64,000 bases of DNA from an uncultured Gammaproteobacteria bacterium (lineage in GTDB: Bacteria; Patescibacteriota; Patescibacteriia; Magasanikbacterales; JBBTQS01), in contig OZ246400.1 of assembly GCA_965230935.1 (NCBI GenBank), positions 87,222 through 151,221 of the forward strand, in the 5' to 3' direction. Positions 6,292-64,000 of this stretch are shown here, one piece after another; positions within the stretch are counted from its first letter, which is position 1; each line of letters opens with the position of its first letter. Under the pieces are notes generated by a model that was given only the letters and a program-made list of their open reading frames with translations, was not told the DNA's origin and searched no databases. Both the position numbers and the translations under genes were made by a program.

Positions 6292-6297
6292 CGTTGG

Positions 6298-7611: not shown

Positions 7612-7647
7612 AGCTTTCCTAAGTAGGGTACACTACGGATACAAACT

Positions 7648-37622: not shown

Positions 37623-37730
37623 GTAATTGTAGAAATAGCTGAAAAACCCAGTGTTTTACTGGGTTTTTCTTATTTTAGGTAAATTTTTGTATCTGTGTTT
37701 TTTCTTACTATTTAGAGTGTTTTGAAGGAC

Positions 37731-37759
37731 TTGACAAAACCATTCATATGTGCTATAGT
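37731..37759 (+). promoter_or_regulatory. Near-consensus sigma70 promoter driving the non-coding GC-rich unit
   Basis: TTGACA, a 17-bp spacer (aaaccattcatatgtgc), then TATAGT. Predicted transcription start near 37766. Confidence 0.6.
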
Positions 37760-37765
37760 ACGTCA

Positions 37766-38759: not shown

Positions 38760-38806
38760 TAATTTTGTCCAATTTTCCTTGACAAGTTTTTAAAAGTGCG
38801 TCATGC

Positions 38807-39034
38807 TTGATATATACAAGCTTTTCTTGTTTTGTATTTGGTATGCCTATTCCAAAACTCCATGCAAAACAGGACGATTTGCTCCGTCGTGAGCGTATAG
38901 AGAAAGAGATGATCGATCAGTATTTACGTCGTGATGATGTAAAACCGGCTCGATATCGGTTTAGTGTGCGTGGCGCTCGCCAGGCGATTGCAGATAGTTC
39001 TCCTACTGAATATTTCCGCACCCATGGGGATTAG
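38807..39034 (+). CDS. Small hypothetical protein
   Basis: A 63-75 codon ORF between the ncRNA terminator and dusB. Charged and helical. Weak support. Confidence 0.25.
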   Translation: MIYTSFSCFVFGMPIPKLHAKQDDLLRRERIEKEMIDQYLRRDDVKPARYRFSVRGARQAIADSSPTEYFRTHGD

Positions 39035-39112
39035 CTTTAGGTTGCCTGATTCGTCTTTTGTAATAGACAAGTATTGAAAATCTGTTATCATAGCCCGAAA
39101 GGGCTTATTGTT

Positions 39113-49435: not shown

Positions 49436-49996
49436 TTATGTTTTTGAAAGAAGTAGTTTTTTTCTGATCCAATAGCTGATGAGGATGCTCAGTGCAAGTA
49501 TTACAAAATACACCAACATGATAGAGACATAACTGTAGGGGATTGATTTAATAAACCCAAGTACAAATGCCGCAGTCCATGATGTTAATGATATTGCTCC
49601 ACTAACAAATAAAGAGGCACTTTCTGTTTTGAATTTATTCGAACGGGTCAATGAACGACCTTCATGTCGATGCAGGTGGGGGATATGTTTTCGATGAAAA
49701 ATATACCCATTGATAATGATAATTCCCACAATGGTCATTTTGGCCAAAAATTTAGTTGAATGAAGATAGCCGCTTATGTTTTGCGCAAACAAAAGTATTC
49801 CGGTGAGCACCATGATTGCAAGTCCGGCCCACACGAGTTTGTGGCCAAGACGCAAAAATCGAAGTTCGGTGTGAGTGATTACTTTGTCTTTAATTGAGCT
49901 AAAGAAGATGAAGTCGCTGGTAATAGCACCGCCCATACCAATGACTACACCAAAAACATGAAGGATAATGAGAAGGAGTTTATAAGTAATGATCAT
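49436..49996 (-). CDS. Hypothetical membrane protein
   Basis: 186 aa with five TM helices. It shares an apparent operon with the helicase. Confidence 0.45.
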   Translation of the reverse strand: MIITYKLLLIILHVFGVVIGMGGAITSDFIFFSSIKDKVITHTELRFLRLGHKLVWAGLAIMVLTGILLFAQNISGYLHSTKFLAKMTIVGIIIINGYIFHRKHIPHLHRHEGRSLTRSNKFKTESASLFVSGAISLTSWTAAFVLGFIKSIPYSYVSIMLVYFVILALSILISYWIRKKLLLSKT

Positions 49997-50114: not shown

Positions 50115-51404
50115 ATGAGTATTCAAGTATTACGCAACATTAGGCAGTGTGTTGATGCATGGGAAATCCGGTGGTATCACCATGTATTTATTTTTGTAAT
50201 CGCATTTGTGCTGATTGTCTCACGACGCCCAGATGTAATACTTCATGCCCAATTTTGGGCAGAAGATGGTCGGGTATGGTTTCAACAAGCGTACAATAGT
50301 GGATTTTTTGAAGCACTCCTCACTCCACACACCGGATACTTCCAGACCTTTTCACGAATCTCAGCTGGGGTAGCGCAATTGGTTCCTTTGGTGTTTGCTC
50401 CCTTGGTATTTAATCTTCTTGCAATCGTGATCAAGATTCTCCCAATTCATTTACTCTTTTCAAAACGATTTTCCAAACTCATCCCAAGTGTTTCGACTCA
50501 ATTGTTGATTAGCTTGCTTTATATCGGTTTGCCAAATACTACAGAAGTTTTTGTAAATGTTACTAACACACATTGGTATCTTGCACTCATTGCATTTATG
50601 ATCATTGTTGCCGAGGTGTCAAAGACAATTTGGGGGAAGATTGGTGACGTTGTGTTGCTTGCCCTTTCAGGATTAAGTGGTCCATTTGTGATTTTATTGT
50701 TTCCAGTTGCGCTGGTGCGCTGGTTGGTAAAGAAAGATAGGGCATTTTTGTGGTCTTTTGTCATTATTGTGCTGTGTGCTGTTATCCAAGGGTATTTTAT
50801 TGTACAGACTGCTGTAGATACGCGATCGTCTATGACACTTGGTGCCTCAGTGGGATGGTTTGTAAAAATTGTTTCTGGACAAATCATGATCGCAGCACTC
50901 GTTGGGAAAAAGGGATTTGAATATCTTTATCGCCATGGGGCACTCACTAATCTAGTGTATACTTTGGTATTTTTGTTTGGATTGATTCCTGTTGCGTATA
51001 CGATGCTCAAAGCACGATGGGAGGCGAAGATGTTTGTTGTGTTTGGCACTCTTGTTTTAATAGTATCACTTGCGAAACCGATGGTAAGTCTTACCGAACC
51101 GCAATGGCCAATTATGAGTATTCCAGGAGCTGCAACGCGGTATTGGTTTATTCCAATAGTTGCATTCGTTGGTTCTGTATTGGTTATGGCACATCTTGTG
51201 CGAAAACGATATCTCAAAATACTCTTAACTATCAGTGTGACTGTAATGCTAGGGGTTGGTGTGTTGTGGGACTGGCGTCACGCACCATGGGAAGATCTGC
51301 AATATCGATCACATATTCAACAGTTTGAACAGGCTCACTCTGGGGAGGTATTTCATGTCCCAATCCACCCCAAAGGGTGGAATATGAGTTTAATACGACG
51401 ATAG
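50115..51404 (+). CDS. Large polytopic membrane protein (possible GT-C-like glycosyl/mannosyltransferase)
   Basis: 429 aa with more than 10 TM helices. Assignment is by architecture only. Confidence 0.4.
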   Translation: MSIQVLRNIRQCVDAWEIRWYHHVFIFVIAFVLIVSRRPDVILHAQFWAEDGRVWFQQAYNSGFFEALLTPHTGYFQTFSRISAGVAQLVPLVFAPLVFNLLAIVIKILPIHLLFSKRFSKLIPSVSTQLLISLLYIGLPNTTEVFVNVTNTHWYLALIAFMIIVAEVSKTIWGKIGDVVLLALSGLSGPFVILLFPVALVRWLVKKDRAFLWSFVIIVLCAVIQGYFIVQTAVDTRSSMTLGASVGWFVKIVSGQIMIAALVGKKGFEYLYRHGALTNLVYTLVFLFGLIPVAYTMLKARWEAKMFVVFGTLVLIVSLAKPMVSLTEPQWPIMSIPGAATRYWFIPIVAFVGSVLVMAHLVRKRYLKILLTISVTVMLGVGVLWDWRHAPWEDLQYRSHIQQFEQAHSGEVFHVPIHPKGWNMSLIRR

Positions 51405-51423: not shown

Positions 51424-51501
51424 ATATAACCAAAACCTCCCACAAGGGGAGGATTTTGGTTATTGCTCACTATCGTGAAGGTTGTTCGAACAGGGTTTTA
51501 C
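51424..51501 (+). repeat. Repeat family copy 1 (hairpin plus U-tract, then conserved 35-bp core)
   Basis: atataaccaaaacctcccacaaggggaggattttggttatTGCTCACTATCGTGAAGGTTGTTCGAACAGGGTTTTAC. It is about 90% identical over roughly 80 bp to copy 2. Confidence 0.8.
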
Positions 51502-51698
51502 TTAGAAAGCAGCTGAAAAGTTGTATTTTTTATATCTAAAATTAAGTTATGACACTCTTGACAAAAAAGCGCTTTTGTGGTAGTTTAATTAGTTCTCCAG
51601 CCAGGAAGAGCAGATGAATGACGCACCTCCTTAACGTGCAAAAAAACAAAAAATCATTCAACTGTTTCTTTAACCCACATGGACTAAGGAGGTCTGCG

Positions 51699-52121
51699 AT
51701 GGGGTATGTTCCTGGTAGGAGTTACACGGGTGTTTCTGTGGTCGTTGATTCGAAGGGGTTGCGTTTCATCTTGCTTTCGAGCAAGGAGGATGCGTGGCAC
51801 TTCCAGCGGCAGTGGTTTGCGCGTAGAGAGGATTATGGCTGCTGCCGTAACCTCTGTTACGACATTAGTGTCAGAGCTGTCGATGGGGAGGAGCGAACTG
51901 ACGATTTGGTGGGTTCTGAGTTCATGCTCAGAGAGTGCCATAGCGATTCGCCTATTCGATTTTCTGATGTCCGAGTCAATCTCAATGCCAATGGGGAGCT
52001 CTTCCTCGTGGTGGTGGGATCGCAGGCTCGAGCGTTCTCTTCTCTGGATCGAGATGGTCATGGGCAGCTGCTTCCTGGTAGGGACGGCAGCCCGGACATC
52101 GCGGTTCTTCACTACTACTAA
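51699..52121 (+). CDS. Hypothetical protein (GC-enriched cassette gene)
   Basis: Strong Shine-Dalgarno AAGGAGG 6 nt upstream of the ATG at 51699. A TTGACA-17-TAGTTT promoter lies upstream (51558). Length 140 aa, no recognised domain. Confidence 0.55.
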   Translation: MGYVPGRSYTGVSVVVDSKGLRFILLSSKEDAWHFQRQWFARREDYGCCRNLCYDISVRAVDGEERTDDLVGSEFMLRECHSDSPIRFSDVRVNLNANGELFLVVVGSQARAFSSLDRDGHGQLLPGRDGSPDIAVLHYY

Positions 52122-52258
52122 CTACTTAAAGGCTCTGGTGCAACGGACGTTGTGTCGGGGCCTTTCGATTTGTGACAAATATGAAAGAGAGGATAAGCAA
52201 AACCTCGATAGGTGATTATCGAGGCTGCGTGGTAAGTTGGTTGAATCCGCGGCGCACG

Positions 52259-52972
52259 TTAGGTGGTATCTTCGGGAAAGATGGTTCCGTACACCTCCAG
52301 ACAGCTCTCTCTAACCTCCCTGTACATCGGATTTTCTCCCGTGAGATCATCCTGAAAAGGTGGTTCAAACGCACCCATGAAGAGCTCTGCTTTACGTTGG
52401 CCAGAGCGCAGCAGCGCCGACAAGTAATCGTAATCTTCCAGCCCAAATGTGGACATGTCATCATGGATCTGTGCGAGCGTCGTACCGATCTCTATGTGAA
52501 GTCCTCGAAGCCCTTCGATTGTACAGCGCATGACACATGCAGGATGTGCGCGATGGTAGTAGTTGTGGACAATCAGGCTCCAGAGCATGTCTTTCCCATC
52601 GATTGGTGCAGAGCTTTCACGCGCAGCCACCTCGCAGCTGATGGGTTCCGGGGGCAAATCATTCCCGTAGATGATCGTGGTGAGGTGGGTGAGAGCATCA
52701 TGGAACGGATAGTTTGCCGGCTCAACGCTCGCATCGTCCTCGTGCAGGTTGCCAAACACAGCATTGATACAGTCGTTCAGATTTTCAGCTACCAGACTGC
52801 GAATGTGTGGGGACGACAAGCGAGACAGGGCATCCCTGCACGCACGAACTCGGCGGTGGTAGTACTGATGTGCCAAAGCCGCAACGCACAGGTGAATTTT
52901 ACTGTTGTGGTTTTGGAAGATCATGCGCGCTCCTGCGCATGAAAGACGTTGGATGTCTTTTTCGATACGCAA
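52259..52972 (-). CDS. Hypothetical protein with internally duplicated H-x-YYHR motif (GC-enriched cassette gene)
   Basis: 237 aa. AHQYYHRRVRAC and VHNYYHRAHPAC suggest an internal duplication. Convergent with the previous gene. Confidence 0.45.
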   Translation of the reverse strand: MRIEKDIQRLSCAGARMIFQNHNSKIHLCVAALAHQYYHRRVRACRDALSRLSSPHIRSLVAENLNDCINAVFGNLHEDDASVEPANYPFHDALTHLTTIIYGNDLPPEPISCEVAARESSAPIDGKDMLWSLIVHNYYHRAHPACVMRCTIEGLRGLHIEIGTTLAQIHDDMSTFGLEDYDYLSALLRSGQRKAELFMGAFEPPFQDDLTGENPMYREVRESCLEVYGTIFPEDTT

Positions 52973-53097
52973 GTCGCGCCTCCTTTACTGGGAGTAGGGA
53001 ATCATCTTTATAGATGTGTGTCAAATTTTAATTAGTGGAAAATAAATAATTTGAACAGACGTTCGCTTTGTTCGCTAGGATTCAAATCAGCTCTCAA

Positions 53098-53176
53098 ATA
53101 TAACCAAAACCCTCCCACAAGGGGAGGATTTTTGGTGTATGCTCACTATCGTGAAGGATGTTAGAACTGGATTTTC
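53098..53176 (+). repeat. Repeat family copy 2
   Basis: aatataaccaaaaccctcccacaaggggaggatttttggtgtaTGCTCACTATCGTGAAGGATGTTAGAACTGGATTTTC. Confidence 0.8.
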
Positions 53177-53222: not shown

Positions 53223-54326
53223 ATGAAAGAAAAATACATACCATCAGCAGCAGAAATTGAAAGAGCTGAGAGCATGATGACTCCTCAGCAGCGTGAAATG
53301 TCAGAAAAGCGGGCCAGATTTAAATTCCAAGAGCGGGATGCTTTTGATGATTTTATGGTACATATTAGTCAGTCAGGAGAGCGGCGAGAGGCGACCGACC
53401 AGGAAAAGGCACGGATGGACAAGAATTTTGCAAAGCTGTGGGAAGTATTAGGTGATTCTGAGATCACGTGGTCTGTGGATGGTGCGCTCAATATATCAGT
53501 ACTACAAGGAGATTATATTGGCATTCATAAAGATGTGGACATCAGCATTGGCATGGATGAAATTGATACGTTAGATGGTGTGTTGCTCAAAGGTGGGTAT
53601 GGTTTGTTTTTGTCCACTCGCCACGAAGTGGGTGGTGAGATGAAAACAATCATGGAACGCGTTGACAGTGATAGATTTCGAGCCGCAGATGTTGATAAGC
53701 GACTTATTGCTGCGATAGATAAGGATGGAAAAATACAAGAGGAAGAAACGTTAAACTTTTTAGACATTCATGTAATTGAAAAAAATGAGGGTGGTAATAT
53801 TGTGGGTTCTGCAGGGGTTGAGTTACCTGAGGAGTGGTTTGTGCCAAGACCTTTGGAATTTAGAGGTACTATGGTTAATACGTCTCATCCTGCAAAAGTG
53901 GCGTATTATAAGCTCCATGATACTCGCAATTACGATCGGACAGATCTTAACAAACTTGCTGAGATTGGCGCACTCGGTGTCGACGATGTGGATACGATAG
54001 GCCGACTTATTGAAGAAGAAATTGCTAATCGAGAGCAAAAAGCAGATGGGGTTTTGGATGATGTGGTACAAAGACTAGATCCAAAAATGGACGCAGAGCA
54101 GATTTTCGCATCAGTAATGCAACATCCTATTTTTGTCCAAGCGGTTGAGCGAAATGAAGATGCAACGAGACAGATTCGTGAGTTTTGTAAACAACTTTCA
54201 GCATTAGATGAGTTGACTTTGCCAAATGTAAAAATGGCAGCAAGCGATGTGTTTAGTATGGATGATATGCATAATACCCTCCGAGCAAATGTTGAGGAGT
54301 TAAGAGGGTGGGTTGAGCAGAAATAA
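53223..54326 (+). CDS. Pol-beta-superfamily nucleotidyltransferase related to ANT(2'')/LinB-type enzymes, with N- and C-terminal extensions
   Basis: TWSVDGALNISVLQGDYIGIHKDVDISIG resembles the GGWAIDA...H-DIDL active-site motif of aminoglycoside-2''/lincosamide nucleotidyltransferases, recalled from memory. 367 aa, longer than the resistance enzymes. Confidence 0.5.
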   Translation: MKEKYIPSAAEIERAESMMTPQQREMSEKRARFKFQERDAFDDFMVHISQSGERREATDQEKARMDKNFAKLWEVLGDSEITWSVDGALNISVLQGDYIGIHKDVDISIGMDEIDTLDGVLLKGGYGLFLSTRHEVGGEMKTIMERVDSDRFRAADVDKRLIAAIDKDGKIQEEETLNFLDIHVIEKNEGGNIVGSAGVELPEEWFVPRPLEFRGTMVNTSHPAKVAYYKLHDTRNYDRTDLNKLAEIGALGVDDVDTIGRLIEEEIANREQKADGVLDDVVQRLDPKMDAEQIFASVMQHPIFVQAVERNEDATRQIREFCKQLSALDELTLPNVKMAASDVFSMDDMHNTLRANVEELRGWVEQK

Positions 54327-54338
54327 TACAAAGCGCAC

Positions 54339-54398
54339 CACAGGAGGTGCATTTTTGCATCAGCTCACTATCTGAAGGATGTTAGAACCGGGTTTTGT
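54339..54398 (+). repeat. Repeat family copy 3 (different hairpin, same core)
   Basis: gcaccacaggaggtgcatttttg, then catcaGCTCACTATCTGAAGGATGTTAGAACCGGGTTTTG. Confidence 0.75.
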
Positions 54399-54425: not shown

Positions 54426-54965
54426 TTATCTTCTGGAGTTTCTATTAATCATCTCGTCTACACGTTTTGGTTCGAGACCAGCTTCGTATGCCTCCTCCTC
54501 AATTTTTGTAATTTCTTTTCTATAGTCTTTTCCAGTGTGTTCGTTCATTTCTCTGTTAAGTGCTGCTTCTGCTTCATTCTCTAGTCTTTTGACTCTTTCT
54601 AGTTTATGTTCTATAAACGTTTCAATAACATTGTAAAGCTCATCTTTTTCGTCTTGTTCAATCTTTCCCTTGGTACCACCAATACGCTCAAAGATTGATC
54701 GAGCCTCATCTATAAGTGTAAAATACTTTTCATTTATTTGAGCTATTTGTCCAGTTAAATAAGATGCATTACCAGGAGTTTTAATTTTGTACTCCTTAAA
54801 ATCATTCATCGTTGGAAATTCCATAACAATGTCATTTATGATTGGCTCTATTTCCAATTCAAATGCGGTAGTAAATTTTTTAAGTTTTTCTTCTATCAAC
54901 CCTCTTTTCTCGTTAGAGAATTTTGATGGTTCGTATTCAGGGATTGTATCAATTAAATTTGTCAT
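54426..54965 (-). CDS. Hypothetical charged helical protein
   Basis: About 180 aa, Glu/Lys-rich, no recognised motif. The start was chosen at MTNLID. Confidence 0.45.
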   Translation of the reverse strand: MTNLIDTIPEYEPSKFSNEKRGLIEEKLKKFTTAFELEIEPIINDIVMEFPTMNDFKEYKIKTPGNASYLTGQIAQINEKYFTLIDEARSIFERIGGTKGKIEQDEKDELYNVIETFIEHKLERVKRLENEAEAALNREMNEHTGKDYRKEITKIEEEAYEAGLEPKRVDEMINRNSRR

Positions 54966-55046
54966 ATTTTTGTAATTCCATCTCTTAAGAGAGTAACACA
55001 AAAATTCTGATACCCATATTTCTTACTTCAAATATTCTTTAAATTT

Positions 55047-55090
55047 ACCAAAAATGCTCACTATTGTGAAGGATGTTCGAACTGTATTTT
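55047..55090 (+). repeat. Repeat family copy 4 (core only, hairpin absent)
   Basis: accaaaaaTGCTCACTATTGTGAAGGATGTTCGAACTGTATTTTG. Confidence 0.75.
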
Positions 55091-55097
55091 GCGGAGT

Positions 55098-55844
55098 TTA
55101 ATCTCTTTTTATCAACGGAATCATGTTAGCAAATATAGATGGCATATCTGTTTTCTTAACAAGGATCAGAAAATTATTCTCATGCATTTGATCATAAACT
55201 GATGGAAACAGCCAGTTTTTTCCATCAACTTTTATCATGAAAACAAATCCTCTTGGCAAGACTATTTCATAGTAACTAGCCTCATCTTTACTTTCTATTA
55301 AGCCACTTATTTGACTAATTCCTCTGACAACCTGGTTTATTTTTTTATCTGTTGACTCTTGCCTATAAACAAAGACTTGTATCTGTCTTGCGGCATCCAA
55401 GTCGTTGTCTCTTATCGCTTTTAAAAAAGTACTTTCATGGTCGCCCAAATCAACACCCCTCGCTTCTTCTCTGGCTGATATGTGAAACCTCCACAATAGC
55501 GATAGAGCGAATAGCTGAAGGTGGTCTAGGTTAGCATTTGGTAAGATTAGATACTCATTGTCTCTTACAGTTGTTCTGGTTGGCTTAGTGGATATCAAAA
55601 TATTTTTCACCGACTCATCATAGACACCGATTTTTGCATCACACTCTCTACACAATATCTTAGCATCATATGAACCATCAGGGCGTTTTTTATTCAGGGT
55701 GTCTTTGCCTACCAAAAGTACGTGGTCGTTACTTGCTTGCTTTTTTTGCTCTTTAATTACCCACTTCGGGAATAGGTGAGATTTGCATCTATTTTTTTCG
55801 TTAATCTTTACATGACACATGCGACAATAAATATCTTCTTCCAT
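55098..55844 (-). CDS. Protein with N-terminal HNH-like zinc-finger nuclease motif
   Basis: CRMCHVKINEKNRCKSHLFPKW...ILCRECDAKIG fits the Cys pair, H-h-h-P, then LCxxC-xxxG pattern of HNH endonucleases. A C-terminal domain of about 170 aa is unknown. Confidence 0.45.
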   Translation of the reverse strand: MEEDIYCRMCHVKINEKNRCKSHLFPKWVIKEQKKQASNDHVLLVGKDTLNKKRPDGSYDAKILCRECDAKIGVYDESVKNILISTKPTRTTVRDNEYLILPNANLDHLQLFALSLLWRFHISAREEARGVDLGDHESTFLKAIRDNDLDAARQIQVFVYRQESTDKKINQVVRGISQISGLIESKDEASYYEIVLPRGFVFMIKVDGKNWLFPSVYDQMHENNFLILVKKTDMPSIFANMIPLIKRD

Positions 55845-55861
55845 ATTTTTTTGTACTAGAG

Positions 55862-56488
55862 TTATGGTAGTGACTCACATGCCATACCATCTGTGTCACG
55901 ATCAAGTCCATGTATATCATGTGCGACATTGCTCAAACAACACTCATAGAGATCCTGTGCTTGTTGTTGCGTAGAAAAATCTTTGCAGTTGTAGATGTTG
56001 TTTGAGCAATTACAACTTGGCACAGGTACTTTTGTGGGAGGGGTAATAACAGGCTCATCCACTGGATCTTCGATTTCTTTCTCGATTGTAGGTAACTCTT
56101 CATTTGGTGTCTTTGTAGACTTAGTACTTTCTAGAACCTCTTTCCCAGCTTCTGTATTTAACGACTTATTATTGCTAGTTACCAGATCTTCCAATTCTAT
56201 AATTTCCTGTACGATATTTTCGATGGAGAGGGTCTTATCAGAGGTATTTTCAATTTGAATTACTTCATCGCCTAATGAAGTTTCCTTCTCCTGAATCGTA
56301 GTAAATTCTTCGTCTATTTGCTGTGCTTCTTGGATGGTACCTTCATCAATTTCTGCAACAGGTGTTTCTACCATCACTGATTTCTCAAATTGTTGAACTT
56401 CGGGTAGCGGTAGACTTCCTTGTTCACAACCAGCACCTATTAGCGAAATTGTTAGCACTATGAGTAGAATTTTTATCTTCGCAAACAT
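55862..56488 (-). CDS. Lipoprotein with C-terminal Excalibur calcium-binding domain
   Basis: Lipobox LIGAGC, then an acidic low-complexity linker, then a C-terminal [13 protein letters not shown]...[10 protein letters not shown] Excalibur-type motif. Confidence 0.6.
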
Positions 56489-56546
56489 AATCTTGATGTT
56501 TGAGTATTGTCACTGTGAACGGTCGATGGTGATTGGTGGGGTTTTA

Positions 56547-57938
56547 CTACCAGAATTTTAGTTTTCTAAACAGTATCTCAATAAAAGATTCTGGCTCTTC
56601 AATTTTTGTCACACGCTCGCGTGGCTTTGCTTTTGGTCTTATCCACTCACAGGTATTACCGACTTCTTTATAGTTTTCGTCACACAACCAAACATCTGTG
56701 GTACTTTCTACAGCATGAGCGTGTTCTGGTATCATTACACAGAATTTTTTATTAAGAGATGGTGCGTATCCGTCTTCACAATTCAATGTTGTCGGTTTAT
56801 TAAAAGGCTTTGCTGCTGGCCTCTCCTTCAAGACATTTGTGTCTTTAACAACTTCCTCGATTTTTATTTGTGGATTCTGCAGTTCAATTACTGACTCTGT
56901 AATTGTATTATCATAATTGATTAAATCAATAACAATATCATTTTCTTCCTCCTCCTCAACACAATAATCGTTCTTAAATATATATCCATCACGACAGACA
57001 CACTCTTTTAACCAGGAGTCATATTCTGAATGATATCCATACCGATCACTACAGTAATCGCTAGCACCGATACATTTTTGTGAAGTGCTGTCAAATAAAT
57101 ATTCACTTTTACACCCGCATGTATCTCCAAGTACCGTAGCTTCAGAATAATAACCGTAAAGATTTTGGCAGTAATCGTCGTTGCTTATGCATTTCGTAAC
57201 ACTCTCATTAAATCTATACCCGTACTTACATTCACATTTGTCTCCTGCGAGATTCGATTTTGCATTGTAACCGTATGTATTTTTACATGAATCATCAACA
57301 CTGATGCACTTTGTTCCGTGGCTATTGAACACGTAACCATAGTTACATTCACAAGTTTTGTCTACTGAGTTGAAATTGGATCCGTAACCATACTCTTGCG
57401 TGCAATAGCTACTACCTAGAATACAAGATTCACCACCGAAAGTGCCTGTATCGACGACGTAGCCATAGTTGCACTTGCAATCCCCACTCAGAGAGTTATA
57501 TGTCGAATTGAGGGGGCAGTTAGGTTGCTGGTCTAGGTAGAAGTTTCCGAAATTATAGTTTGAGTAAGTATCGTAATTATTACCAGGTTGGTTAGATTCG
57601 TAGAGACTCTTACCAGTGTAATAATCAGGGTCTGTTATGTATGTTGGTGTATCCCAATAGGTATCTCTTGTCCCGTAGGAATCGTTGTAAAGTCCCTGGC
57701 TGGGCTTCCATCCGTAGTTATCGTACTTTAAGCCATTTGGGTTGCTCCTGACGTGTGGTTTGACATATGTTCCATCACTTCTGTAGTAACCCTTTACAGA
57801 GACATATGCATCTGCTGTAAGTGGTGAGAATATGGTGGATGTCGCTACGATTAGGACGACGACTGTGAATTTTAATATGTTGCTATTCATAATTTCTCTA
57901 TCAATCATAGTATCTAATAGTAATGCAATTCGAGTCAA
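56547..57938 (-). CDS. Secreted Cys-rich tandem-repeat protein
   Basis: Signal peptide, a Tyr/Asn/Asp-rich region, then five tandem modules of about 37 aa (C-x-C-x-YGY-x-F...KCI-x-DD-x-C-x-N-x-YGY). The C-terminus has additional Cys pairs. Confidence 0.6.
   Translation of the reverse strand: MTRIALLLDTMIDREIMNSNILKFTVVVLIVATSTIFSPLTADAYVSVKGYYRSDGTYVKPHVRSNPNGLKYDNYGWKPSQGLYNDSYGTRDTYWDTPTYITDPDYYTGKSLYESNQPGNNYDTYSNYNFGNFYLDQQPNCPLNSTYNSLSGDCKCNYGYVVDTGTFGGESCILGSSYCTQEYGYGSNFNSVDKTCECNYGYVFNSHGTKCISVDDSCKNTYGYNAKSNLAGDKCECKYGYRFNESVTKCISNDDYCQNLYGYYSEATVLGDTCGCKSEYLFDSTSQKCIGASDYCSDRYGYHSEYDSWLKECVCRDGYIFKNDYCVEEEEENDIVIDLINYDNTITESVIELQNPQIKIEEVVKDTNVLKERPAAKPFNKPTTLNCEDGYAPSLNKKFCVMIPEHAHAVESTTDVWLCDENYKEVGNTCEWIRPKAKPRERVTKIEEPESFIEILFRKLKFW
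56963..57500 (-). repeat. Tandem repeats of about 111 bp encoding the Cys-rich modules
   Basis: Recurring gtaaccgta/gtaaccata and acattcaca blocks at the nucleotide level. Five copies at the protein level. Confidence 0.55.
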
Positions 57939-57982
57939 TATCTATATCAGAATATCCAAGAGCTTCATCTACAAAATTTTGA

Positions 57983-59392
57983 CTAAAACCTACCTAAGGC
58001 TGTGGCATTTTCAAAAAATGTATCATGGACGACCGCTTTAATTAGTAGGTCGATCTTGTTTGTGATCTCTCCTTCCTCTATCTTTTGCGTTGCATACTCT
58101 TTATCATTCTCACTAAAAATGAAGTGGCCACTTAGTGAGAATGAATTAGTAGGAATAAGAAAGAAATTTTCAATCAAATTATCACCGTCTTTATCTACAC
58201 CAACTCCGAGTATATAGTCATATTTCCTTGCAGAATCGGGTATTGAAAAACACCAGTGCTTATTCCGTGAATTTTCGGCACTATAAAATGCAACACTCGA
58301 ATATACAGGTAAGTTTTTCAATACAAAATAGATACCTTCCTCATCAATTCGTTTCTCAAGTAAATATTCCTCTAGATCTTTTCTTAGTTGCTTTTCGGCT
58401 TTTCTGATTTTGTATACCCCCTTGTTTGAGCGTGAAGGTAGTAGCCAATACAGTTTTTCCTGTACTCTATAAAACATTTCGTCATTGATGATTGGTTCAA
58501 ATGCCTTCTCTACGATTACCCAATCTTTTCTTTGATTTCGTCTGTAGCCACGTTTTAGTTTGTTACTAGTTTTGTTATACAAAAGAGTGCCTCTGTACGT
58601 TTCATTTGAGAGTACGTGAACTATTTTGGAGCTATTCCATTCTCCGCCACCAGGAGATTTAATGCCTTGGTTATCTAGACCACGTGCGATTTCGTTAGGT
58701 GAGGTGTTATCTAAGTCAAAAAGTTTAAAAATCTTTTTAACAGTTTCTGTAGATTCATCATTGGCAGGAACAAAGACTATTCTCCCATTTGCCAGAGCTT
58801 TTCTTTGCCCTTTTTTTAGAATGCGTTCAGGTTGTTTTTGTTCGTCCAAGAGGAGTCTTGCGTAACCATAAGGCGCAATTCCACCGACAGAGTAACCTTT
58901 TGATGTTATCTTGATACATCCATTAAAAACTTTTTTACTCAAATCTCTACTATATTCTGATGCAGATGCACGCTTAAGACTTCTAATCACTCCTGAAAAT
59001 GTCTGGTTGTCATCTTCTTTGGGAAACGGTTCCGAAGTATACAGAACTTTCTTTCCATGCTCTTTACATACAAATTCATAATGACCAGCTTCATTACTGT
59101 CGTCGAATCTGCCCCAACGAGAATCGTCGTATACTAACACATAATCAAACTCAGGTGCGTTGGGATTCTTTACCCAATCATTTATGAGTGATTGAAAACC
59201 AGGTCTGTCAGCCACAAGCCCAGTGTGCTTATCTTCTAAAGAATGGATGATCTCAACGTTATTTTGGTCGGCGTACTCTTTGGCAGCATCTTGCTGAATC
59301 TCAATCGAGTACTCTTGCATATCACGAGTCGACCTGCGACTATATGAAATTGCCTTTTTGGATTGACTCTCTCTAAACAACTGCCTAGCCAT
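57983..59392 (-). CDS. Large serine recombinase (resolvase/integrase family)
   Basis: N-terminal resolvase catalytic motif AISYSRRSTRDMQEYSIEIQ, then a recombinase domain (GYSVGGIAPYGY) and a long C-terminal region. Length 469 aa. Confidence 0.75.
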   Translation of the reverse strand: MARQLFRESQSKKAISYSRRSTRDMQEYSIEIQQDAAKEYADQNNVEIIHSLEDKHTGLVADRPGFQSLINDWVKNPNAPEFDYVLVYDDSRWGRFDDSNEAGHYEFVCKEHGKKVLYTSEPFPKEDDNQTFSGVIRSLKRASASEYSRDLSKKVFNGCIKITSKGYSVGGIAPYGYARLLLDEQKQPERILKKGQRKALANGRIVFVPANDESTETVKKIFKLFDLDNTSPNEIARGLDNQGIKSPGGGEWNSSKIVHVLSNETYRGTLLYNKTSNKLKRGYRRNQRKDWVIVEKAFEPIINDEMFYRVQEKLYWLLPSRSNKGVYKIRKAEKQLRKDLEEYLLEKRIDEEGIYFVLKNLPVYSSVAFYSAENSRNKHWCFSIPDSARKYDYILGVGVDKDGDNLIENFFLIPTNSFSLSGHFIFSENDKEYATQKIEEGEITNKIDLLIKAVVHDTFFENATALGRF

Positions 59393-59396
59393 ACTC

Positions 59397-60341
59397 TTAC
59401 AGCACTGTGTCGGTTACTTCTTTCAACTCAGAGAGGGCAACTTTCTCTTTTTCCTCGAAGCCCTTACCTTTTTGGAGTCTTTTTGCTATGGATCGGGTCA
59501 ATTCCTCAATTTGCAATGAGAGACCTGACAAGATAGTATTTTCAGCGAGTTGCTTAACTCCCATGTCGTCATTTTTCAAGAACTGTAATAGCTCTTTCTT
59601 GTTGGCTTCTGTGCGCTTCACAACGCGGCTGATCGTTCGATATTCCTTTGCTGAGTTAATTACCTCATGTCGTGTTTTGTAAAAAATGCGATCTACGACA
59701 TCTTTAATCTTAAACTCGTCTATGTCTCGAATTTTCGGGTATAGTTTTACGAATTCAACTATGTAGGATTCCTCATCGAGAAGTTCGTATTTCCTTAGAA
59801 GGTTCATGTACCTCTCTTCAATCTTTTTTAGATTAAGTGAATTCGTAACAACAGTGCTGGACATGTTAAGTGCTTTTGCTATTTCCTTAGGCTTCATGCC
59901 TGTTTCTTCGCGGATAGTGTTTAGTGCAGCAGAACGCTCTAAAGGTTTCCAAGAGCGTCTGTTGTTCTGTGCTTCATATCTGATCAATTCCAAATCACCC
60001 TTACTTGTATTTTTAGGTAAGACCTTACATGCAAGTTCTTCAATTTTTAGCTTCTTGGCAGAGCGAAATCTGCGATGACCATCTAAGATGAGGTAGGTAT
60101 CATTGCCTCTATCCAGTACCAGCAAATCTCGAAGAACACCCCATTTTTTGATGGATTCCAAAATTCTATTTTTATCTCCGTCAAGACCGAAGTCTCTTCG
60201 TGGTTGCTTCTTGTCTTCCACTAACTGCGAAGTTTTGAGTATTTTTTGCTTGATAACTTTTTCATTCATAGAAAACTCTTTTGAACGTAACTTCCTTCTT
60301 GGATTAGGAAAAACCCTATCATAAGGGTTCAAAAAAGTCAA
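59397..60341 (-). CDS. ParB-like nuclease/partition domain protein
   Basis: LILDGHRRFRSA matches the ParB/Srx GxxR-DGHHR-type motif. Possible HTH in the middle. The start is ambiguous (TTG at 60341 or ATG at 60269). Confidence 0.6.
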   Translation of the reverse strand: MTFLNPYDRVFPNPRRKLRSKEFSMNEKVIKQKILKTSQLVEDKKQPRRDFGLDGDKNRILESIKKWGVLRDLLVLDRGNDTYLILDGHRRFRSAKKLKIEELACKVLPKNTSKGDLELIRYEAQNNRRSWKPLERSAALNTIREETGMKPKEIAKALNMSSTVVTNSLNLKKIEERYMNLLRKYELLDEESYIVEFVKLYPKIRDIDEFKIKDVVDRIFYKTRHEVINSAKEYRTISRVVKRTEANKKELLQFLKNDDMGVKQLAENTILSGLSLQIEELTRSIAKRLQKGKGFEEKEKVALSELKEVTDTVL

Positions 60342-60355
60342 CTCATTGAGTTGAC
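60337..60355. promoter_or_regulatory. Perfect 9-1-9 palindrome at the parB-like 5-prime end (candidate operator or parS-like site)
   Basis: GTCAACTCA-T-TGAGTTGAC. Confidence 0.35.
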
Positions 60356-60480
60356 GTACTATGAATAATAGTCAATTTTGACTAAAATTAGTTTTTTCTA
60401 GTAAAGAGAGAGTTTATTTTTATGAGTTGGTAATCCTAATTACATCTTCCACAACTGATAATTTTTGCAAGCACACATCT

Positions 60481-61122
60481 TTATTTTCCCCATGTTATCT
60501 CATATTCTTTCATCATCCTCTTTTGTTCTTTTTTTGCTCTTGGATCTACAATCAATACCACTTCGTCGTCACATGTTCTTACTTTGTCGAGTTTTTGCTG
60601 GGCTAACTTTCTTCCGTGGTCTATTTGGTATTTACCATTCAATACATTCATATAAATCTGCTTCATTATATCCAAGTTGTTGTAAAGAATGCTTCTTAAA
60701 AGTTTACCTCTAGCCAGGTCTTCTATAGCTTCTACTAGATTCTTGCTGGGTTCAAATTTACCCTCTTTATCACTGTCTATAAATTCATTCAATTCCTTAG
60801 CTTCTAAATTTCTCGCTAACTTTAAGCGCTCAATATGTTCCCGCTCTGATATTTCATAATCTCTAACCATGTTTTGTAGGTCCAAATTTTTCGTGCCAGA
60901 AGTTGAGTTTATATCATTGTAAAAAATGTTTAACAAAAATAGTGGCGCAGATAGGTTTTTTATCTCAAAAATAATTTCTCTCAGGCTTTGGTATCCGTCT
61001 TTATGTCTTCGGTTACTGTCCATCCTGTTGAGTTTCTTTTCTAATCGTCCAATACTTGTAAAGACAAAACGATATAGGAGGTAAAGAAACATAATGATAA
61101 TTAGGAATTGTAGTGTACTCAT
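60481..61122 (-). CDS. Hypothetical N-terminally membrane-anchored protein
   Basis: One TM helix, then a charged helical domain. It is the first gene of the minus-strand operon. Length 213 aa. Confidence 0.45.
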   Translation of the reverse strand: MSTLQFLIIIMFLYLLYRFVFTSIGRLEKKLNRMDSNRRHKDGYQSLREIIFEIKNLSAPLFLLNIFYNDINSTSGTKNLDLQNMVRDYEISEREHIERLKLARNLEAKELNEFIDSDKEGKFEPSKNLVEAIEDLARGKLLRSILYNNLDIMKQIYMNVLNGKYQIDHGRKLAQQKLDKVRTCDDEVVLIVDPRAKKEQKRMMKEYEITWGK

Positions 61123-61327
61123 AATTGTCCTGTGTTAGTTATTCTGTCTGCTTATTTGAGTTTTGCTGCCTAATCAAAAAAGGACAGCCACGGTCTAGCC
61201 ACAAATTTGTCTGCACAGGGCATCCAATTGTGGACGTGACTGCCCATCTTTACGCACAATTGCGAAAATAAGGACAGATCCCTGTGGTTTAAATTTGTAG
61301 CTAGACATTGCAGTTATAACAGAAAAC
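61123..61327. promoter_or_regulatory. Divergent control region of the mobile/replicon module
   Basis: It separates a leftward and a rightward operon. It holds several GGACAG/CTGTCC half-sites and three ACAATTGT-like palindromic motifs (ccacaaatttgt, ccaattgtgg, gcacaattgcg). Confidence 0.4.
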
Positions 61328-61345
61328 TTGCAAAAAATCAAAGAA

Positions 61346-62101
61346 ATGCAATACTGGATTCGTATGCATAAAGATGATGATACAAAAATAAGGCAGGAGG
61401 CCTATACTATTTTGAGGAAGATGGTTGATATCGTCGAGAATGAACAGTGGTCTCTGGTTTTACTTCCAGAAGCGAATGGTGTGGTTGTCACTGGCGATAG
61501 TTTGGTCCTACAGCATGGCTATACAATTCAGCATGAATTTGATAGTGCAGGAGTCGTAAGCTATGTGAATGATTACGTGGATGGGATCAGTAAGCTAAAT
61601 GAGCTTTCATTTGTTACAACAACATTGGTGGATATTAGTGATCGTCCGATGACTTCCCCGACCCTCAAGTACAATTGCAATTTCCAGATTTCCGATATGA
61701 GAAAAGCAAAAGAGAAGTTAAGGGGTTTAAGCAGAGAGTACATTTCAAAAATATCTGATGAGAGCGGAGATGGTAATCGGGCTATTGAAGTCTATTACAT
61801 TCCAAAAAAACGTAATGGGTATGTTCATTTCAAAGGTGAAGAGATTATGCGTTTCGGTGGTCGCAGAGGGTTAATCCTTGAATTCTTTTTCCAGAGAAGA
61901 GAAACTAATAGATATTATTCTGCATACGATATGGCGGCAGCGAGCATAAACATAACACCTGGAAGGCTCAGCGATGAGATAAAGGAAATTAACAGGCTGT
62001 TTTGGCGTGAAACAGATATTGAGATGTTGATTCAAAGTAGGCGCTATTGCGAGGGTCGAGAGTTGCCGAAAAAATTGGACGAGTATCGTTGGGCGCTTTA
62101 A
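61346..62101 (+). CDS. Hypothetical protein
   Basis: About 250 aa, no recognised motif. The ATG at 61346 is preferred over the TTG at 61328. Confidence 0.45.
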   Translation: MQYWIRMHKDDDTKIRQEAYTILRKMVDIVENEQWSLVLLPEANGVVVTGDSLVLQHGYTIQHEFDSAGVVSYVNDYVDGISKLNELSFVTTTLVDISDRPMTSPTLKYNCNFQISDMRKAKEKLRGLSREYISKISDESGDGNRAIEVYYIPKKRNGYVHFKGEEIMRFGGRRGLILEFFFQRRETNRYYSAYDMAAASINITPGRLSDEIKEINRLFWRETDIEMLIQSRRYCEGRELPKKLDEYRWAL

Positions 62102-62241
62102 GCGCTATCGTGTCAGTATCCTGTTAATAAGTAGTTAAAACCAGTTATTTTACTGGTCTTTTTTGTATGGAGAACGATGACAAGACGATGAAAAAATTTG
62201 TGTAAAGATAAAGACATCGGAATTGCAAATAGTGCAATGTT

Positions 62242-62397
62242 CAAATGTTGATCCAGATGTCAATACCTCCAAAGTTAATTCAAGAATTTCAAAAATTGTA
62301 TGAGGCAAGATTTGGTATTGAGCTCTCAGAGAAGGAAGCTTTGGAGAAAGGAACACAGCTGATCTTGCTGATGCGTGCCGTTTACAAACCTACTAAA
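62242..62397 (+). CDS. Small helical protein (unannotated ORF, possible regulator)
   Basis: 51 codons MLIQMSIPPKLIQEFQKLYEARFGIELSEKEALEKGTQLILLMRAVYKPTK. Helical and amphipathic. It sits directly upstream of the primase-like gene. Confidence 0.25.
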
Positions 62398-62402
62398 TAA
62401 GT

Positions 62403-63113
62403 ATGGTACAGGAAACTCACACAATTCAAGATCCAAGGACACGCAGTGCACGGAGAAAATTGCCAGAGACAGAATTCCTTTGGTCGTGGCGCTTGTCACG
62501 TGGATATTTGTACGAGACTGATCAGGAAATTGAGCAGTCGGAGAATACAGTGGGGCATTTGGAAAAAATACGAAAAAAGAATCGGCGCAGATTCACAGAC
62601 AGGGAATTATTTGCCTTGTTTCCTGAGGCAAAGGACATGATTTTGGAACTTATAACCACAATGTTGGTGGAGCGGAAGTCAGTTGTTGCAAGGATCAAGG
62701 TTGCACTTAGAAACGCTACTACGGAGGATCAGCGTTCGAGAGTAAGGCTTGAGGGAGAGAGGAAGTTAAAAGAGGTGGATGGTCATCTAAATCGACTAAG
62801 GAGGCAATGGCGTTTCATCAAATATGAGAAGCCTGACAAAACTGGGTCTGATCGCATTGATCAGGCGGCCATAGAGCAAGCAAAAGAGGTACCAATACAA
62901 GATTTCTTGGACGTTGAGTTCAAGCAAGTTGGAAATAAGCTTCTCGCGTCTTGTCCACTGCATAATGAACGGACACCCTCTTTCTATGTGTATCAAGATA
63001 CAAATACCGCGTGGTGTTATGGGTGCCAGCAAGGTGGTGATTCAATCACAATTGCAAAGTTGACACATGGGTATTCATTTCAGGAGGCCGTGGCCTTCCT
63101 AATAAACAAGTAA
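62403..63113 (+). CDS. Protein with C-terminal CHC2 primase-type zinc finger
   Basis: CPLHNERTPSFYVYQDTNTAWCYGCQQGGDSI matches the DnaG/P4-alpha CHC2 zinc-ribbon pattern CP.H.E.TPSF...C.GC..GGD. No TOPRIM domain within the 236 aa. Confidence 0.55.
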   Translation: MVQETHTIQDPRTRSARRKLPETEFLWSWRLSRGYLYETDQEIEQSENTVGHLEKIRKKNRRRFTDRELFALFPEAKDMILELITTMLVERKSVVARIKVALRNATTEDQRSRVRLEGERKLKEVDGHLNRLRRQWRFIKYEKPDKTGSDRIDQAAIEQAKEVPIQDFLDVEFKQVGNKLLASCPLHNERTPSFYVYQDTNTAWCYGCQQGGDSITIAKLTHGYSFQEAVAFLINK

Positions 63114-63117
63114 GTGT

Positions 63118-64000
63118 ATGTATCAAGATGAAATTGACAAAATTGAAGCTGAGGTCACAGAGGAGGTTGCATTGAGGCCGATTACAATATCAGAACTGTT
63201 GACTCAGACTTTTGATGATGTAGAGTGGATTGTCGATGGTCTAATCCCAGCAGAGAGTATTGTGATTCTGTCAGGGCAGCCAGCTTGTTACAAGACTTGG
63301 ATCCTGCTTGAATTTGCAATTCAAATCGCGCAAGGTCTGCCAGTATTCAAGCATTTCGATTCAGAGAAAACAGGAGTGCTCATAGTTGACGAAGAGTCTG
63401 GTGCACGATTACTACAGAAGAGGATAAAAAGTATGTGGACCTCTGTTTGTGGAGATGTGCCAATACATATTTTGAGTTACGCAAATTTTTCCGTGAAAGA
63501 AAATACTATTGAGCACCTAATTCGGTATTCTCAGGAAAAAGGAATAGGGTTAGTAATATTTGATTCATTAGTACGCATACACAAATCAGATGAAAATGAC
63601 GCTTCTGGGATGTCCAGAGTCTTCAGCGAACTAAGACGATTCAACAAGGCCAATATTTCCGTATTGCTGGCACACCACCACAGGAAAAGAAGCAAAGACG
63701 GTATAAAAATGGATCAATCCCAGGAGATGCGTGGTAGCTCTGATATCTTGGCAGCCGTGGACAGTCATGTGGCTGTAACAAAAAGAGATGGACATGTTGT
63801 TATGCAGCAAACAAAGATGAGGTATAGAGAGGAGGTTTCACCATTTAAGGTGAATATCATAAGTGAGAACGAATCATTTGCTTTCGAATATGGTGGCGAA
63901 ATAGATGAAATCAATGATAAGAAAAGTGACTTTAAGGCAGCGATAATGGCTTTTCTCGAAGGATCTGAGAATCTTTTGTATAAGGGGGAGCTATATGCGT
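63118..64000 (+). CDS. RepA/AAA_25-like RecA-fold ATPase (partial, runs off window)
   Basis: DGLIPAESIVILSGQPACYKTWILLEFAIQIAQG resembles the AAA_25 Walker-A context of plasmid/phage RepA-like helicase loaders. Walker B-like LVIFDSL. No stop codon before the window end. Confidence 0.5.
   Translation, partial: MYQDEIDKIEAEVTEEVALRPITISELLTQTFDDVEWIVDGLIPAESIVILSGQPACYKTWILLEFAIQIAQGLPVFKHFDSEKTGVLIVDEESGARLLQKRIKSMWTSVCGDVPIHILSYANFSVKENTIEHLIRYSQEKGIGLVIFDSLVRIHKSDENDASGMSRVFSELRRFNKANISVLLAHHHRKRSKDGIKMDQSQEMRGSSDILAAVDSHVAVTKRDGHVVMQQTKMRYREEVSPFKVNIISENESFAFEYGGEIDEINDKKSDFKAAIMAFLEGSENLLYKGELYA

Follow-up and report, generated by a model that had tools for sequence, protein, structure and literature searches.

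The closest functional analogues of the mobile element described here, which lies in a 64,000-nt stretch of contig OZ246400.1 (GenBank assembly GCA_965230935.1), are the staphylococcal cassette chromosome (SCC) elements, including SCCmec, and the tycheposons. SCC elements have two recombinases of unequal size, CcrA (~450 aa) and CcrB (~540 aa), and form composite arrays in which recombinase-less pseudo-SCC units are bounded by repeated att sequences. In SCCmec, the recombinase gene directly follows a helicase/primase operon, a putative origin is close by, and the primase-helicase module has been shown biochemically (PMC7581432). Tycheposons are small integrative elements of Prochlorococcus that target tRNA genes and carry a recombinase, a primase/helicase, and cargo; they stack at one tRNA and leave degraded remnants, and 910 of 937 use tyrosine recombinases, flanked by partial-tRNA direct repeats (10.1101/2020.12.28.424599).

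Our locus is in the chromosome of a member of the Patescibacteria, or candidate phyla radiation (CPR). It is quite probably a single integrated, non-viral mobile element of ~11.46 kb, placed at the tip of a tRNA-Gln(CTG) gene by a large serine recombinase (LSR), which we call LSR#2. A second serine recombinase within the element, LSR#1, is encoded next to a ParB-like protein. CPR bacteria are ultra-small, with tiny genomes and few recognised mobile elements. (We use "the window" for the full 64,000-nt stretch. Coordinates marked "extended" continue the window's numbering to the right; they equal positions in the extension contig, L001, plus 52402.)

The likeness to SCC and SCCmec is that these are capsid-less islands with large serine recombinases, that the target is the 3' end of a conserved housekeeping gene, that the gene order is priming accessory, helicase, recombinase, and that both have two unequal recombinases and composite arrays. 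However, the target is tRNA-Gln instead of rlmH, and the helicase is of the RepA/AAA_25 type instead of Cch/Cch2. A distance of 5.5 kb separates the two recombinase genes, their pairing is different in that LSR#1 adjoins ParB, and the host is a CPR bacterium. Also, LSR#1 and LSR#2 score 25-83 bits (49-83) against the NCBIfam models for Ccr, whose cut-offs are 700-900. Judged by CcrA/CcrB or CcrC, rlmH, and the Cch/Cch2 operon, this is not an SCC element. It resembles tycheposons in targeting a tRNA, in having replication genes, and in the stacking at one site. Unlike them, it uses a serine recombinase and shares just ~4-6 nt with the tRNA, and the repeated unit beside it is a P'-type half-site rather than a tRNA fragment. 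With neither a tyrosine recombinase nor a partial tRNA copy, it is not a tycheposon either.

A probable integrated element that ends at tRNA-Gln

A first-pass annotation of the window had read this region as an integrated replicon and not as a tailed prophage, with two divergent gene sets, the right-hand one running off the end. An exact-protein look-up found a 102.8-kb ENA contig that is identical to the window over an 11,598-nt overlap and extends it to the right. The extension reaches the right boundary, where LSR#2 abuts tRNA-Gln and dnaX. The genes and other features are:

55098-55844, minus strand: 248-aa protein with no assigned function (two CxxC pairs; PHROG families of unknown function)
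55862-56488, minus strand: lipoprotein with a C-terminal Excalibur calcium-binding domain, cargo (Excalibur E 1.3e-4, barely past the cut-off)
56547-57938, minus strand: secreted or anchored protein with EGF-like Cys repeats, cargo (from the translation and its repeats)
57983-59392, minus strand: LSR#1, serine recombinase (Pfam Resolvase and Recombinase)
59397-60341, minus strand: ParB-like protein (ParB_N and HTH_ParB; GHRRFRSA arginine patch)
60481-61122, minus strand: 213-aa protein with an N-terminal hydrophobic membrane helix, no known family (translation, Pfam)
61123-61327: divergent control region (inverted and direct repeats)
61328-62101, plus strand: 257-aa protein, no known family (Pfam)
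62245-62400, plus strand: 51-aa helical protein (kept upstream of the CHC2 gene in related elements)
62403-63113, plus strand: CHC2 protein (CHC2 zinc finger in residues 171-235 only)
63118-64167 (extended; the window ends at 64000), plus strand: RepA-like AAA_25 helicase, 349 aa (AAA_25 E 3e-32)
64307-64675 (extended): 122-aa ORF (contig extension, 3' of the helicase gene)
64712-64885 (extended): 57-aa ORF (contig extension)
64903-66579 (extended), plus strand: LSR#2, 558-aa canonical large serine recombinase (three Pfam domains)
66517-66590 (extended), minus strand: tRNA-Gln(CTG) (ARAGORN)
66593-68224 (extended), minus strand: dnaX (contig extension)

In an ORF map of 50-64 kb, all ten open reading frames (ORFs) that had been listed are present at the annotated coordinates. 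The labels Excalibur, Resolvase plus Recombinase, ParB, CHC2, and AAA_25 each have a match in Pfam, and the control region between the divergent gene sets is 205 bp long.

LSR#2 has the parts expected of a large serine recombinase: a catalytic domain with the nucleophilic serine (PF00239, E 4e-20; the motif YARKSS is in its translation), a recombinase domain (PF07508, E 5e-9), and a zinc ribbon (PF13408 or Zn_ribbon_recom, E 2e-9). It also matches the integrase family phrog_95 (E 3e-75). This architecture of N-terminal domain, recombinase domain, and zinc ribbon is shared with the integrases of serine-integrase prophages (phiC31, Bxb1, A118, SPbeta), as is the att logic of imperfect inverted arms around a central dinucleotide. 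In contrast to those prophages, the element has no virion genes, its target is a tRNA tip, and there is a second, zinc-ribbon-less recombinase with a ParB. The integrase of the element appears to be LSR#2, outside the window, and not the recombinase that the first-pass annotation had seen.

The last 63 nt of the LSR#2 frame are overlapped by the antisense tRNA-Gln(CTG). The order dnaX then tRNA-Gln recurs in many CPR genomes, so this tRNA is a chromosomal landmark. Beyond dnaX are a VirD4-like gene, corA, and cysS. DnaX matches only Patescibacteria-type metagenome-assembled genomes (MAGs), at ~35-47% identity, which marks the host as a CPR bacterium with no closely related sequenced genome.

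We then compared the site with that of relatives. LSR#2 homologues converge on a dnaX-adjacent tRNA-Gln in four other loci (L023, L028, L032, and L091). L091 has the same chromosomal synteny and the same tRNA, and its recombinase is ~81-82% identical to LSR#2, versus ~40-65% for the aligned segments of dnaX. Nevertheless, its cargo is almost wholly different: the only match is between a 58-aa ORF and the window's 51-aa ORF. Thus, the site is variable; the first-pass annotation had held that invariance in relatives would speak against an integrated replicon.

None of the 16 ORFs is a capsid, portal, terminase, or tail gene (Pfam, PHROGs). Like the right boundary and the variable site, this favours the first-pass reading of an integrated replicon, which is supported. 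The first-pass annotation had allowed for an integrative and conjugative element, which is not supported because Pfam finds no relaxase or type IV secretion domain between 55059 and 66521; nor does the locus qualify as an integrative and mobilizable element. (The VirD4/TraG-like coupling protein beyond dnaX, 846 aa with DUF8128, at extended 68921-71461 or L001 16519-19059, is kept beside dnaX in many CPR genomes, at up to ~75% amino acid identity. It belongs to the host chromosome, outside the element.) As for a defence system, PADLOC gave only trivial domain matches. GC content falls from ~44% to 34-42% across the element; it is 34-39% at 54-61 kb and ~44% in the rest of the window.

Proposed attachment sites and crossover

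Four direct repeats of 35-46 nt, R1-R4, lie on one strand at 51465, 53141, 54363, and 55056, with no more in 73 kb. Each reads (T/A)GC-TC-ACTATCGTGAAGGATGTTMGAAC, and their cores are 85-92% alike:

51465-51499, plus strand: R1, outermost attL-type junction (tRNA-Gln tip TTGC, TC at 51467-51468, P'-type arm ACTATCGTGAAGGTTGTTCGAAC)
53141-53175, plus strand: R2 junction (TC at 53143-53144; left arm, with its hairpin, almost the same as in R1)
54363-54396, plus strand: R3 junction (TC at 54365-54366; arm one base shorter, upstream hairpin different)
55056-55090, plus strand: R4, putative attL of the 11.46-kb element (TC at 55058-55059, arm ACTATTGTGAAGGATGTTCGAAC)

R4 ends 8 nt before 55098, where the first-pass annotation had begun its region. 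In CPR genomes that lack the element, the native 3' tip of tRNA-Gln has the same GC-TC as the repeats, and the 4 nt to the left of TC in R1-R4 agree with native CPR tRNA-Gln tips. A terminator hairpin lies 14-15 nt to the left of TC in R1-R3 (14 nt in R1) and 16 nt away beside the tRNA; R4 has none.

On the tRNA side, the plus strand reads ...TTCACAGTGGT-TC-GGAGACC..., which would put the crossover TC at 66521-66522 (extended). Read outward from TC, the tRNA-side element arm (ACCACTGTGAACGAAG) and the R4 arm (ACTATTGTGAAGGATG) match at 12 of 16 positions. As background, 9 of the ~146,000 16-mers in the 73 kb score this high, and R4 is the sole partner for the tRNA-side arm. Joined, the two arms make an imperfect palindrome around TC, which fits the attP of a serine integrase. 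We infer from this that the element runs from 55059 in the window to 66521 extended (11.46 kb) and includes both divergent gene sets.

Two loci elsewhere agree with this model. In L105, an LSR that is 59% identical to LSR#2 is followed by an uninterrupted attP-like site. The left arm of that site aligns with the tRNA-side arm of our element (z = 10.7), and its right arm agrees with R2 in 14 of 18 positions, with equal spacing from TC. The R4 arm, too, lines up in register with this site. In L052, two R-type arms, inverted relative to each other, enclose a ~0.6-kb unit next to dnaX-tRNA-Gln(TTG).

In the proposed mechanism, LSR#2 would insert the element into the 3' tip of tRNA-Gln(CTG), downstream of dnaX, with the crossover at TC. 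The ARAGORN fold of the tRNA is normal (U1-A72, A73, CCA), and TC corresponds to G71-A72 (positions 71-72) of the acceptor stem. Because A73 and CCA would come from the element, the tRNA is kept intact. The LSR#2 frame would cross the junction into the antisense tRNA; in the circle it would remain open, with its stop 13 codons beyond the crossover. The predicted circle junction is ...TTCACAGTGGT-TC-ACTATTGTGAAGG..., with attP as ...CGCTTCGTTCACAGTGGT-TC-ACTATTGTGAAGGATGTTCGAAC...; the predicted empty site is ...AAAAATGC-TC-GGAGACC..., and after loss of unit 4 it would read ...TTTACCAAAAATGC-TC-GGAGACCAGGATTTGAACC....

Direct repeats of part of the tRNA were not found at the left end, either with up to 3 mismatches or with blastn-short, here or at 19 other loci. 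We found candidate att sites (R4 and the tRNA-side arm), as the first-pass annotation had suggested looking for. For an empty site there is no close relative to compare, as the best DnaX match among GTDB species genomes is only ~40% identical. We also asked whether the R repeats are RNA genes, and Rfam gave only four tRNAs in the window.

A helicase with a zinc-finger partner

The AAA_25 protein has a RecA-fold ATPase domain with Walker motifs, which by sequence puts it in the RepA/DnaB-like family of hexameric helicases. The Walker A and B residues (K59, T60, D91, E92, and E93) are invariant in the family alignment, and the family profile matches the RepA helicase of RSF1010 (1g8y, E 1.3e-10). 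There are 476 relatives; among the 120 listed, 36 have a Prim-Pol primase fused to the helicase. The relatives from phages and plasmids are distant (23-33% identity) and carry the annotation RepA-like helicase or primase-helicase; 465 phage records contain them.

The CHC2 protein belongs to a family of proteins of 180-280 aa (the best 150 representatives are all at most 279 aa). In its AlphaFold model (pLDDT 87), long helices are joined to a domain that superposes on the zinc-binding domain of DnaG (1d0q; rmsd 1.4 A over 88 columns). The remainder is a coiled-coil helical hairpin that was unmatched. Neither the sequence nor the model has a TOPRIM or AEP (archaeo-eukaryotic primase) catalytic domain. 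A DnaG-type primase combines the zinc-binding domain with TOPRIM, so the CHC2 protein is not one. Of the "split primase-helicase" in the first-pass annotation, the RepA-like helicase stands and the primase does not. Going by the model, the element appears to have a helicase and a template-binding accessory, with no recognisable primase catalytic domain or initiator.

This resembles IncQ-type replicons such as RSF1010, both in the match to RepA and in having helicase and priming on separate polypeptides. It differs in that no RepB'-like primase or RepC-like initiator was recognised, the partner is a DnaG zinc-binding domain on a coiled coil, and the element is integrative. After excision, the circle would be copied by the RepA-type hexameric helicase and its zinc-finger/coiled-coil partner, with primers made by the host or by some protein not recognised as a primase. 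The repeat-rich divergent region probably holds the origin or operators. A search for iterons between the helicase gene and the 122-aa ORF gave one weak 24-nt repeat.

A ParB-like protein paired with a zinc-ribbon-less recombinase

LSR#1 had been described as a large serine recombinase, but it differs from the canonical ones: neither LSR#1 nor any of its 120 listed homologues has the PF13408 zinc ribbon, the domain with the coiled-coil motif. It has ~470 relatives of 440-490 aa, from CPR bacteria and Bacteroidota. The catalytic residues R19, S21, R92, and R95 are invariant, and in an AF2 model (pLDDT 86) the match to the integrases of SPbeta, Bxb1, and phiC31 covers the N-terminal ~320 residues, with the catalytic and recombinase domains. 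The C-terminal alpha/beta domain was unmatched in the structure comparison.

A ParB_N gene lies immediately upstream of the LSR#1 homologue, on the same strand, in all five of the other independent contexts that we examined. A canonical zinc-ribbon LSR is 0-8 kb away in 6 of 6 contexts (the window included). In four of these (the window's element, L175, L177, and L179), circularisation would bring the two recombinase genes to either side of attP, both pointing toward it. The LSR of L177 overlaps tRNA-His. The R repeats were not seen in L175 or L177. As for the parts of a ParABS system, the ParB_N and HTH domains and the GHRRFRSA motif are present, and Pfam finds no ParA gene in the element. 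The ParB-like protein and LSR#1 form a conserved accessory pair, perhaps with a role in multimer resolution, maintenance, or control of the main integrase. (Separately, the island of L177 at tRNA-His carries a diversity-generating retroelement as cargo, at 6144-8160, with RVT_1, bAvd, and a 120-nt template/variable repeat pair.)

Cargo and control region

The rest of the leftward genes would be surface-protein cargo. The translation of 55862-56488 contains the lipobox LIGAGC, and that of 56547-57938 has a signal or transmembrane segment and at least 5 repeats of the form C-x-C-x2-GY-x-F...C. The 248-aa protein had been called HNH-like; its Pfam match to HNH_5 has E = 1.8, which does not bear this out, and it has one homologue (31% identity) in another element, L149. 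The leftward genes had also been described as an operon. The genes are there, but there is a terminator-like hairpin (60355-60337) downstream of the 213-aa membrane-protein gene, between it and parB, so they may not form one operon.

The control region contains a 16-nt inverted repeat (61193-61208 and 61291-61306, 94% complementary, 82 nt apart), a 12-nt direct repeat (AAAWAAGGACAG, twice), and an 8-nt inverted pair (CAATTGTG/CACAATTG). It is a candidate for holding operators, a ParB site, or the origin. To its right, the 257-aa gene is followed by its own terminator-like hairpin (62140-62157), and no counterpart of its product was found in the related elements examined. The 51-aa protein is a candidate regulator or directionality factor.

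The assemblies of two other samples have contigs that end just inside this right-hand set, at 61898/61899 (MEGAHIT assemblies ERZ930065 and ERZ930069, and Logan ERR2281800). The next contig starts at 61914 (ERZ930065) or 62086 (ERZ930069), inside the 257-aa gene, and identity is otherwise ~100%. These breaks at 61899-61914 could reflect strain variation, a module junction, or a dip in coverage. We also considered an inversion switch at the break, and rejected it: the only inverted match is 14 nt (E 0.02), too short to break an assembly with k = 127.

A family of elements in CPR metagenomes

A scan of metagenome contigs with the helicase profile gave more than 304 relatives, and we examined 80 loci. 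An LSR#2-type match is present in 33 of the 80, nearly always just downstream of the helicase. The CHC2 gene is just upstream of the helicase in 16, and 6 of these also have the 51-aa ORF. Of the 27 LSR frames with a 3' end inside the contig, an automatic tally counted 23 that stop no more than ~100 nt from where an antisense tRNA has its 3' end. For 21 of these 23, the LSR frame and the listed tRNA share 10-91 nt. (For the other two, L100 and L172, the tRNA in the tally is a neighbour of the one that is overlapped, tRNA-Asp or tRNA-Tyr.) Across the family, the target tRNAs are Asp, Gly, Asn, Ser, Leu, Arg, Lys, Gln, Tyr, and His. The conserved backbone is the small ORF, the CHC2 protein, the RepA-like helicase, the LSR, and the tRNA.

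LSR#2 itself has thousands of relatives. The best 120 are 55-60% identical, and the few of these that carry a source name are from CPR bacteria. In the viral catalogue IMG/VR (2.9 million contigs), the helicase profile gave just 1 locus, versus more than 304 relatives from metagenomes, and single-protein scans with LSR#2, the helicase, and LSR#1 gave no match. Because the backbone recurs in metagenome contigs and is almost absent from the viral catalogue, it behaves as a non-viral integrative element. Narrow literature searches turned up no description of serine-recombinase elements of CPR bacteria, which may be described elsewhere.

Two members deserve mention for their layout. L105 carries two LSRs on one contig (683-2140 and 11625-13223): one is of the Gln type, with the intact attP-like site, and the other overlaps tRNA-Asn. 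It appears to be an element that has two integrases and could therefore use either of two targets. In L154 (8751-14691), only a 113-aa C-terminal remnant of an LSR adjoins tRNA-Gln(CTG), and the complete helicase-LSR unit is found another 4 kb away. Stacking or decay at tRNA-Gln(CTG) is thus seen a second time.

Alternative explanations

A single LSR#2 element has to be weighed against other readings of the same region. The two halves could be separate elements side by side, with a ParB/short-recombinase island at 55.1-61.1 kb and a 5.2-kb helicase-LSR backbone at 61.3-66.5 kb, each moving alone. In its favour, the 80 backbone loci all lack the ParB-like protein, LSR#1, the membrane protein, and the 257-aa protein, and the ParB-LSR#1 pair is also found where there is no helicase module. 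GC content is lower in the left half (34-39%) than in the right (39-42%), and several assemblies break at 61899-61914. But no R-type half-site or att-like repeat lies between the halves, and R4, at 55058, is the only match for the tRNA-side arm. Also, the canonical LSR near all six ParB-LSR#1 pairs, with both recombinase genes aimed at the same att site in four of the six, fits a module that is carried inside LSR elements. Two separate elements seem unlikely to us. We give still less weight to a phage satellite, of the kind of the phage-inducible chromosomal islands (PICI) or the Staphylococcus aureus pathogenicity islands (SaPI), or a prophage remnant, that spreads in the capsids of a helper virus. 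An integrase, a primase/helicase-type module, and small regulators are the layout of a PICI; the phage records noted above contain distant relatives of the helicase; the 248-aa, CHC2, ParB, and recombinase proteins match PHROG families; and the ParB-LSR#1 context of L175 has a terminase-like gene nearby. Against this, no capsid, portal, terminase, packaging, or helper-interference gene was recognised in the 11.5 kb (although about half of the proteins are unannotated and may hide packaging functions), and the backbone family is nearly absent from viral contigs. The least probable alternative, to which we give very little credence, is a fixed genomic island that is no longer mobile, with its recombinases and helicase decaying or domesticated. 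Three samples have the identical sequence, an excised form was not seen, and the neighbouring cassettes have already lost their recombinases. On the other hand, the backbone ORFs are intact, with invariant catalytic residues; LSR#2 is far closer to its counterpart in L091 than the dnaX segments are; and at the same site, L091 has almost completely different cargo.

Several observations weigh against the single LSR#2 element, which we nevertheless prefer. The ParB-LSR#1 pair is absent from all 80 backbone loci, so it is an optional module and not core; together with the AT-richness of the left half, this means that the left half could be a separate module. The crossover is placed by short-motif symmetry and by the two outside examples (L105 and L052), and not by an observed attB or attP. 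Neither the R-type arm nor the left arm was found in the 10 kb examined of L091, and a blind symmetry scan for left ends in other loci was not discriminating and recovered none. The three assemblies of the organism are identical, with no empty site, circular junction, or excised form observed. No primase catalytic domain, initiator, or directionality factor was identified in the element, so autonomous replication and excision are predictions. Finally, a simple model does not account for four stacked half-sites, since canonical serine integrases are not known to use a site again once it is occupied.

Stacked cassettes to the left of the element

Between R1 and R4 are three units without a recombinase, of 1.68, 1.22, and 0.69 kb, each of which starts with an R half-site:

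51500-53140: cassette 1 (53% GC, no recombinase; ORFs at 51618-52121 on the plus strand and 52259-52972 on the minus strand, no known family)
53223-54326, plus strand: cassette 2 (nucleotidyltransferase-like protein; Aminoglyc_resit E 4e-7)
54426-55001, minus strand: cassette 3 (191-aa protein, called as 179-aa, with no assigned function)

The three cassettes would be older or hitch-hiking units at the same tRNA-Gln target. Cassette 1 has long overlapping ORFs on both strands, including 52172-52942 on the plus strand; its GC content of 53% compares with 44% for the genome. It also has a near-consensus promoter (TTGACA-17-TAGTTT, ~51559-51587). To the left of R1 are a PIF1-like helicase gene (48127-49425) and two unknown genes (49436-49996 and 50115-51404), none of which has a counterpart near dnaX-tRNA-Gln in relatives. 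An older part of the island may extend left to the PIF1-like gene.

The unit in L052 (11150-11800, in the Saccharibacteria MAG CAZNYQ010000005.1) is also recombinase-less. It encodes a small membrane protein and has arms that read GTGAA-N-GTTAGAAC, and it resembles a miniature version of the element that is mobilised in trans. This is not an integron: the element has no tyrosine recombinase (IntI), and R1-R4 have no evident internal attC-type dyad.

Speculatively, a tRNA-side element arm without the outer GTTMGAAC motif may stay an acceptable target. A doubtful but conceivable extension is that R1-R4 and L052 represent a gene-capture platform run by serine recombinases. In such a platform, cassettes and elements would pile up at the usable tRNA-proximal junction and could leave together with an LSR-bearing unit, and the ParB/zinc-ribbon-less recombinase pair would control the traffic. 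If so, this pair would be a new accessory recombination module in CPR.

Other features of the window

Two further stretches of the window have unusual composition. The first kb is 64% GC (versus ~44%), and the 401-aa ORF that spans most of 1-1253 (48-1253) has no Pfam family. A 1.45-kb stretch (37622-39074) with ~51% GC, which separates a PsbP-like gene from dus, has no ORF longer than 107 aa and no Rfam match even at E 0.1.

Implications

Two leads stand out: the role of the ParB-partnered, zinc-ribbon-less recombinase, and the reuse of a serine integrase site to stack cassettes. The family also represents many natural serine integrases with predictable, conserved tRNA targets, which are of interest for genome engineering. 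For CPR bacteria, this compact and widespread family of elements could move surface-protein and other cargo through conserved tRNA tips, and so could account, in part, for gene flow without phages or conjugation.

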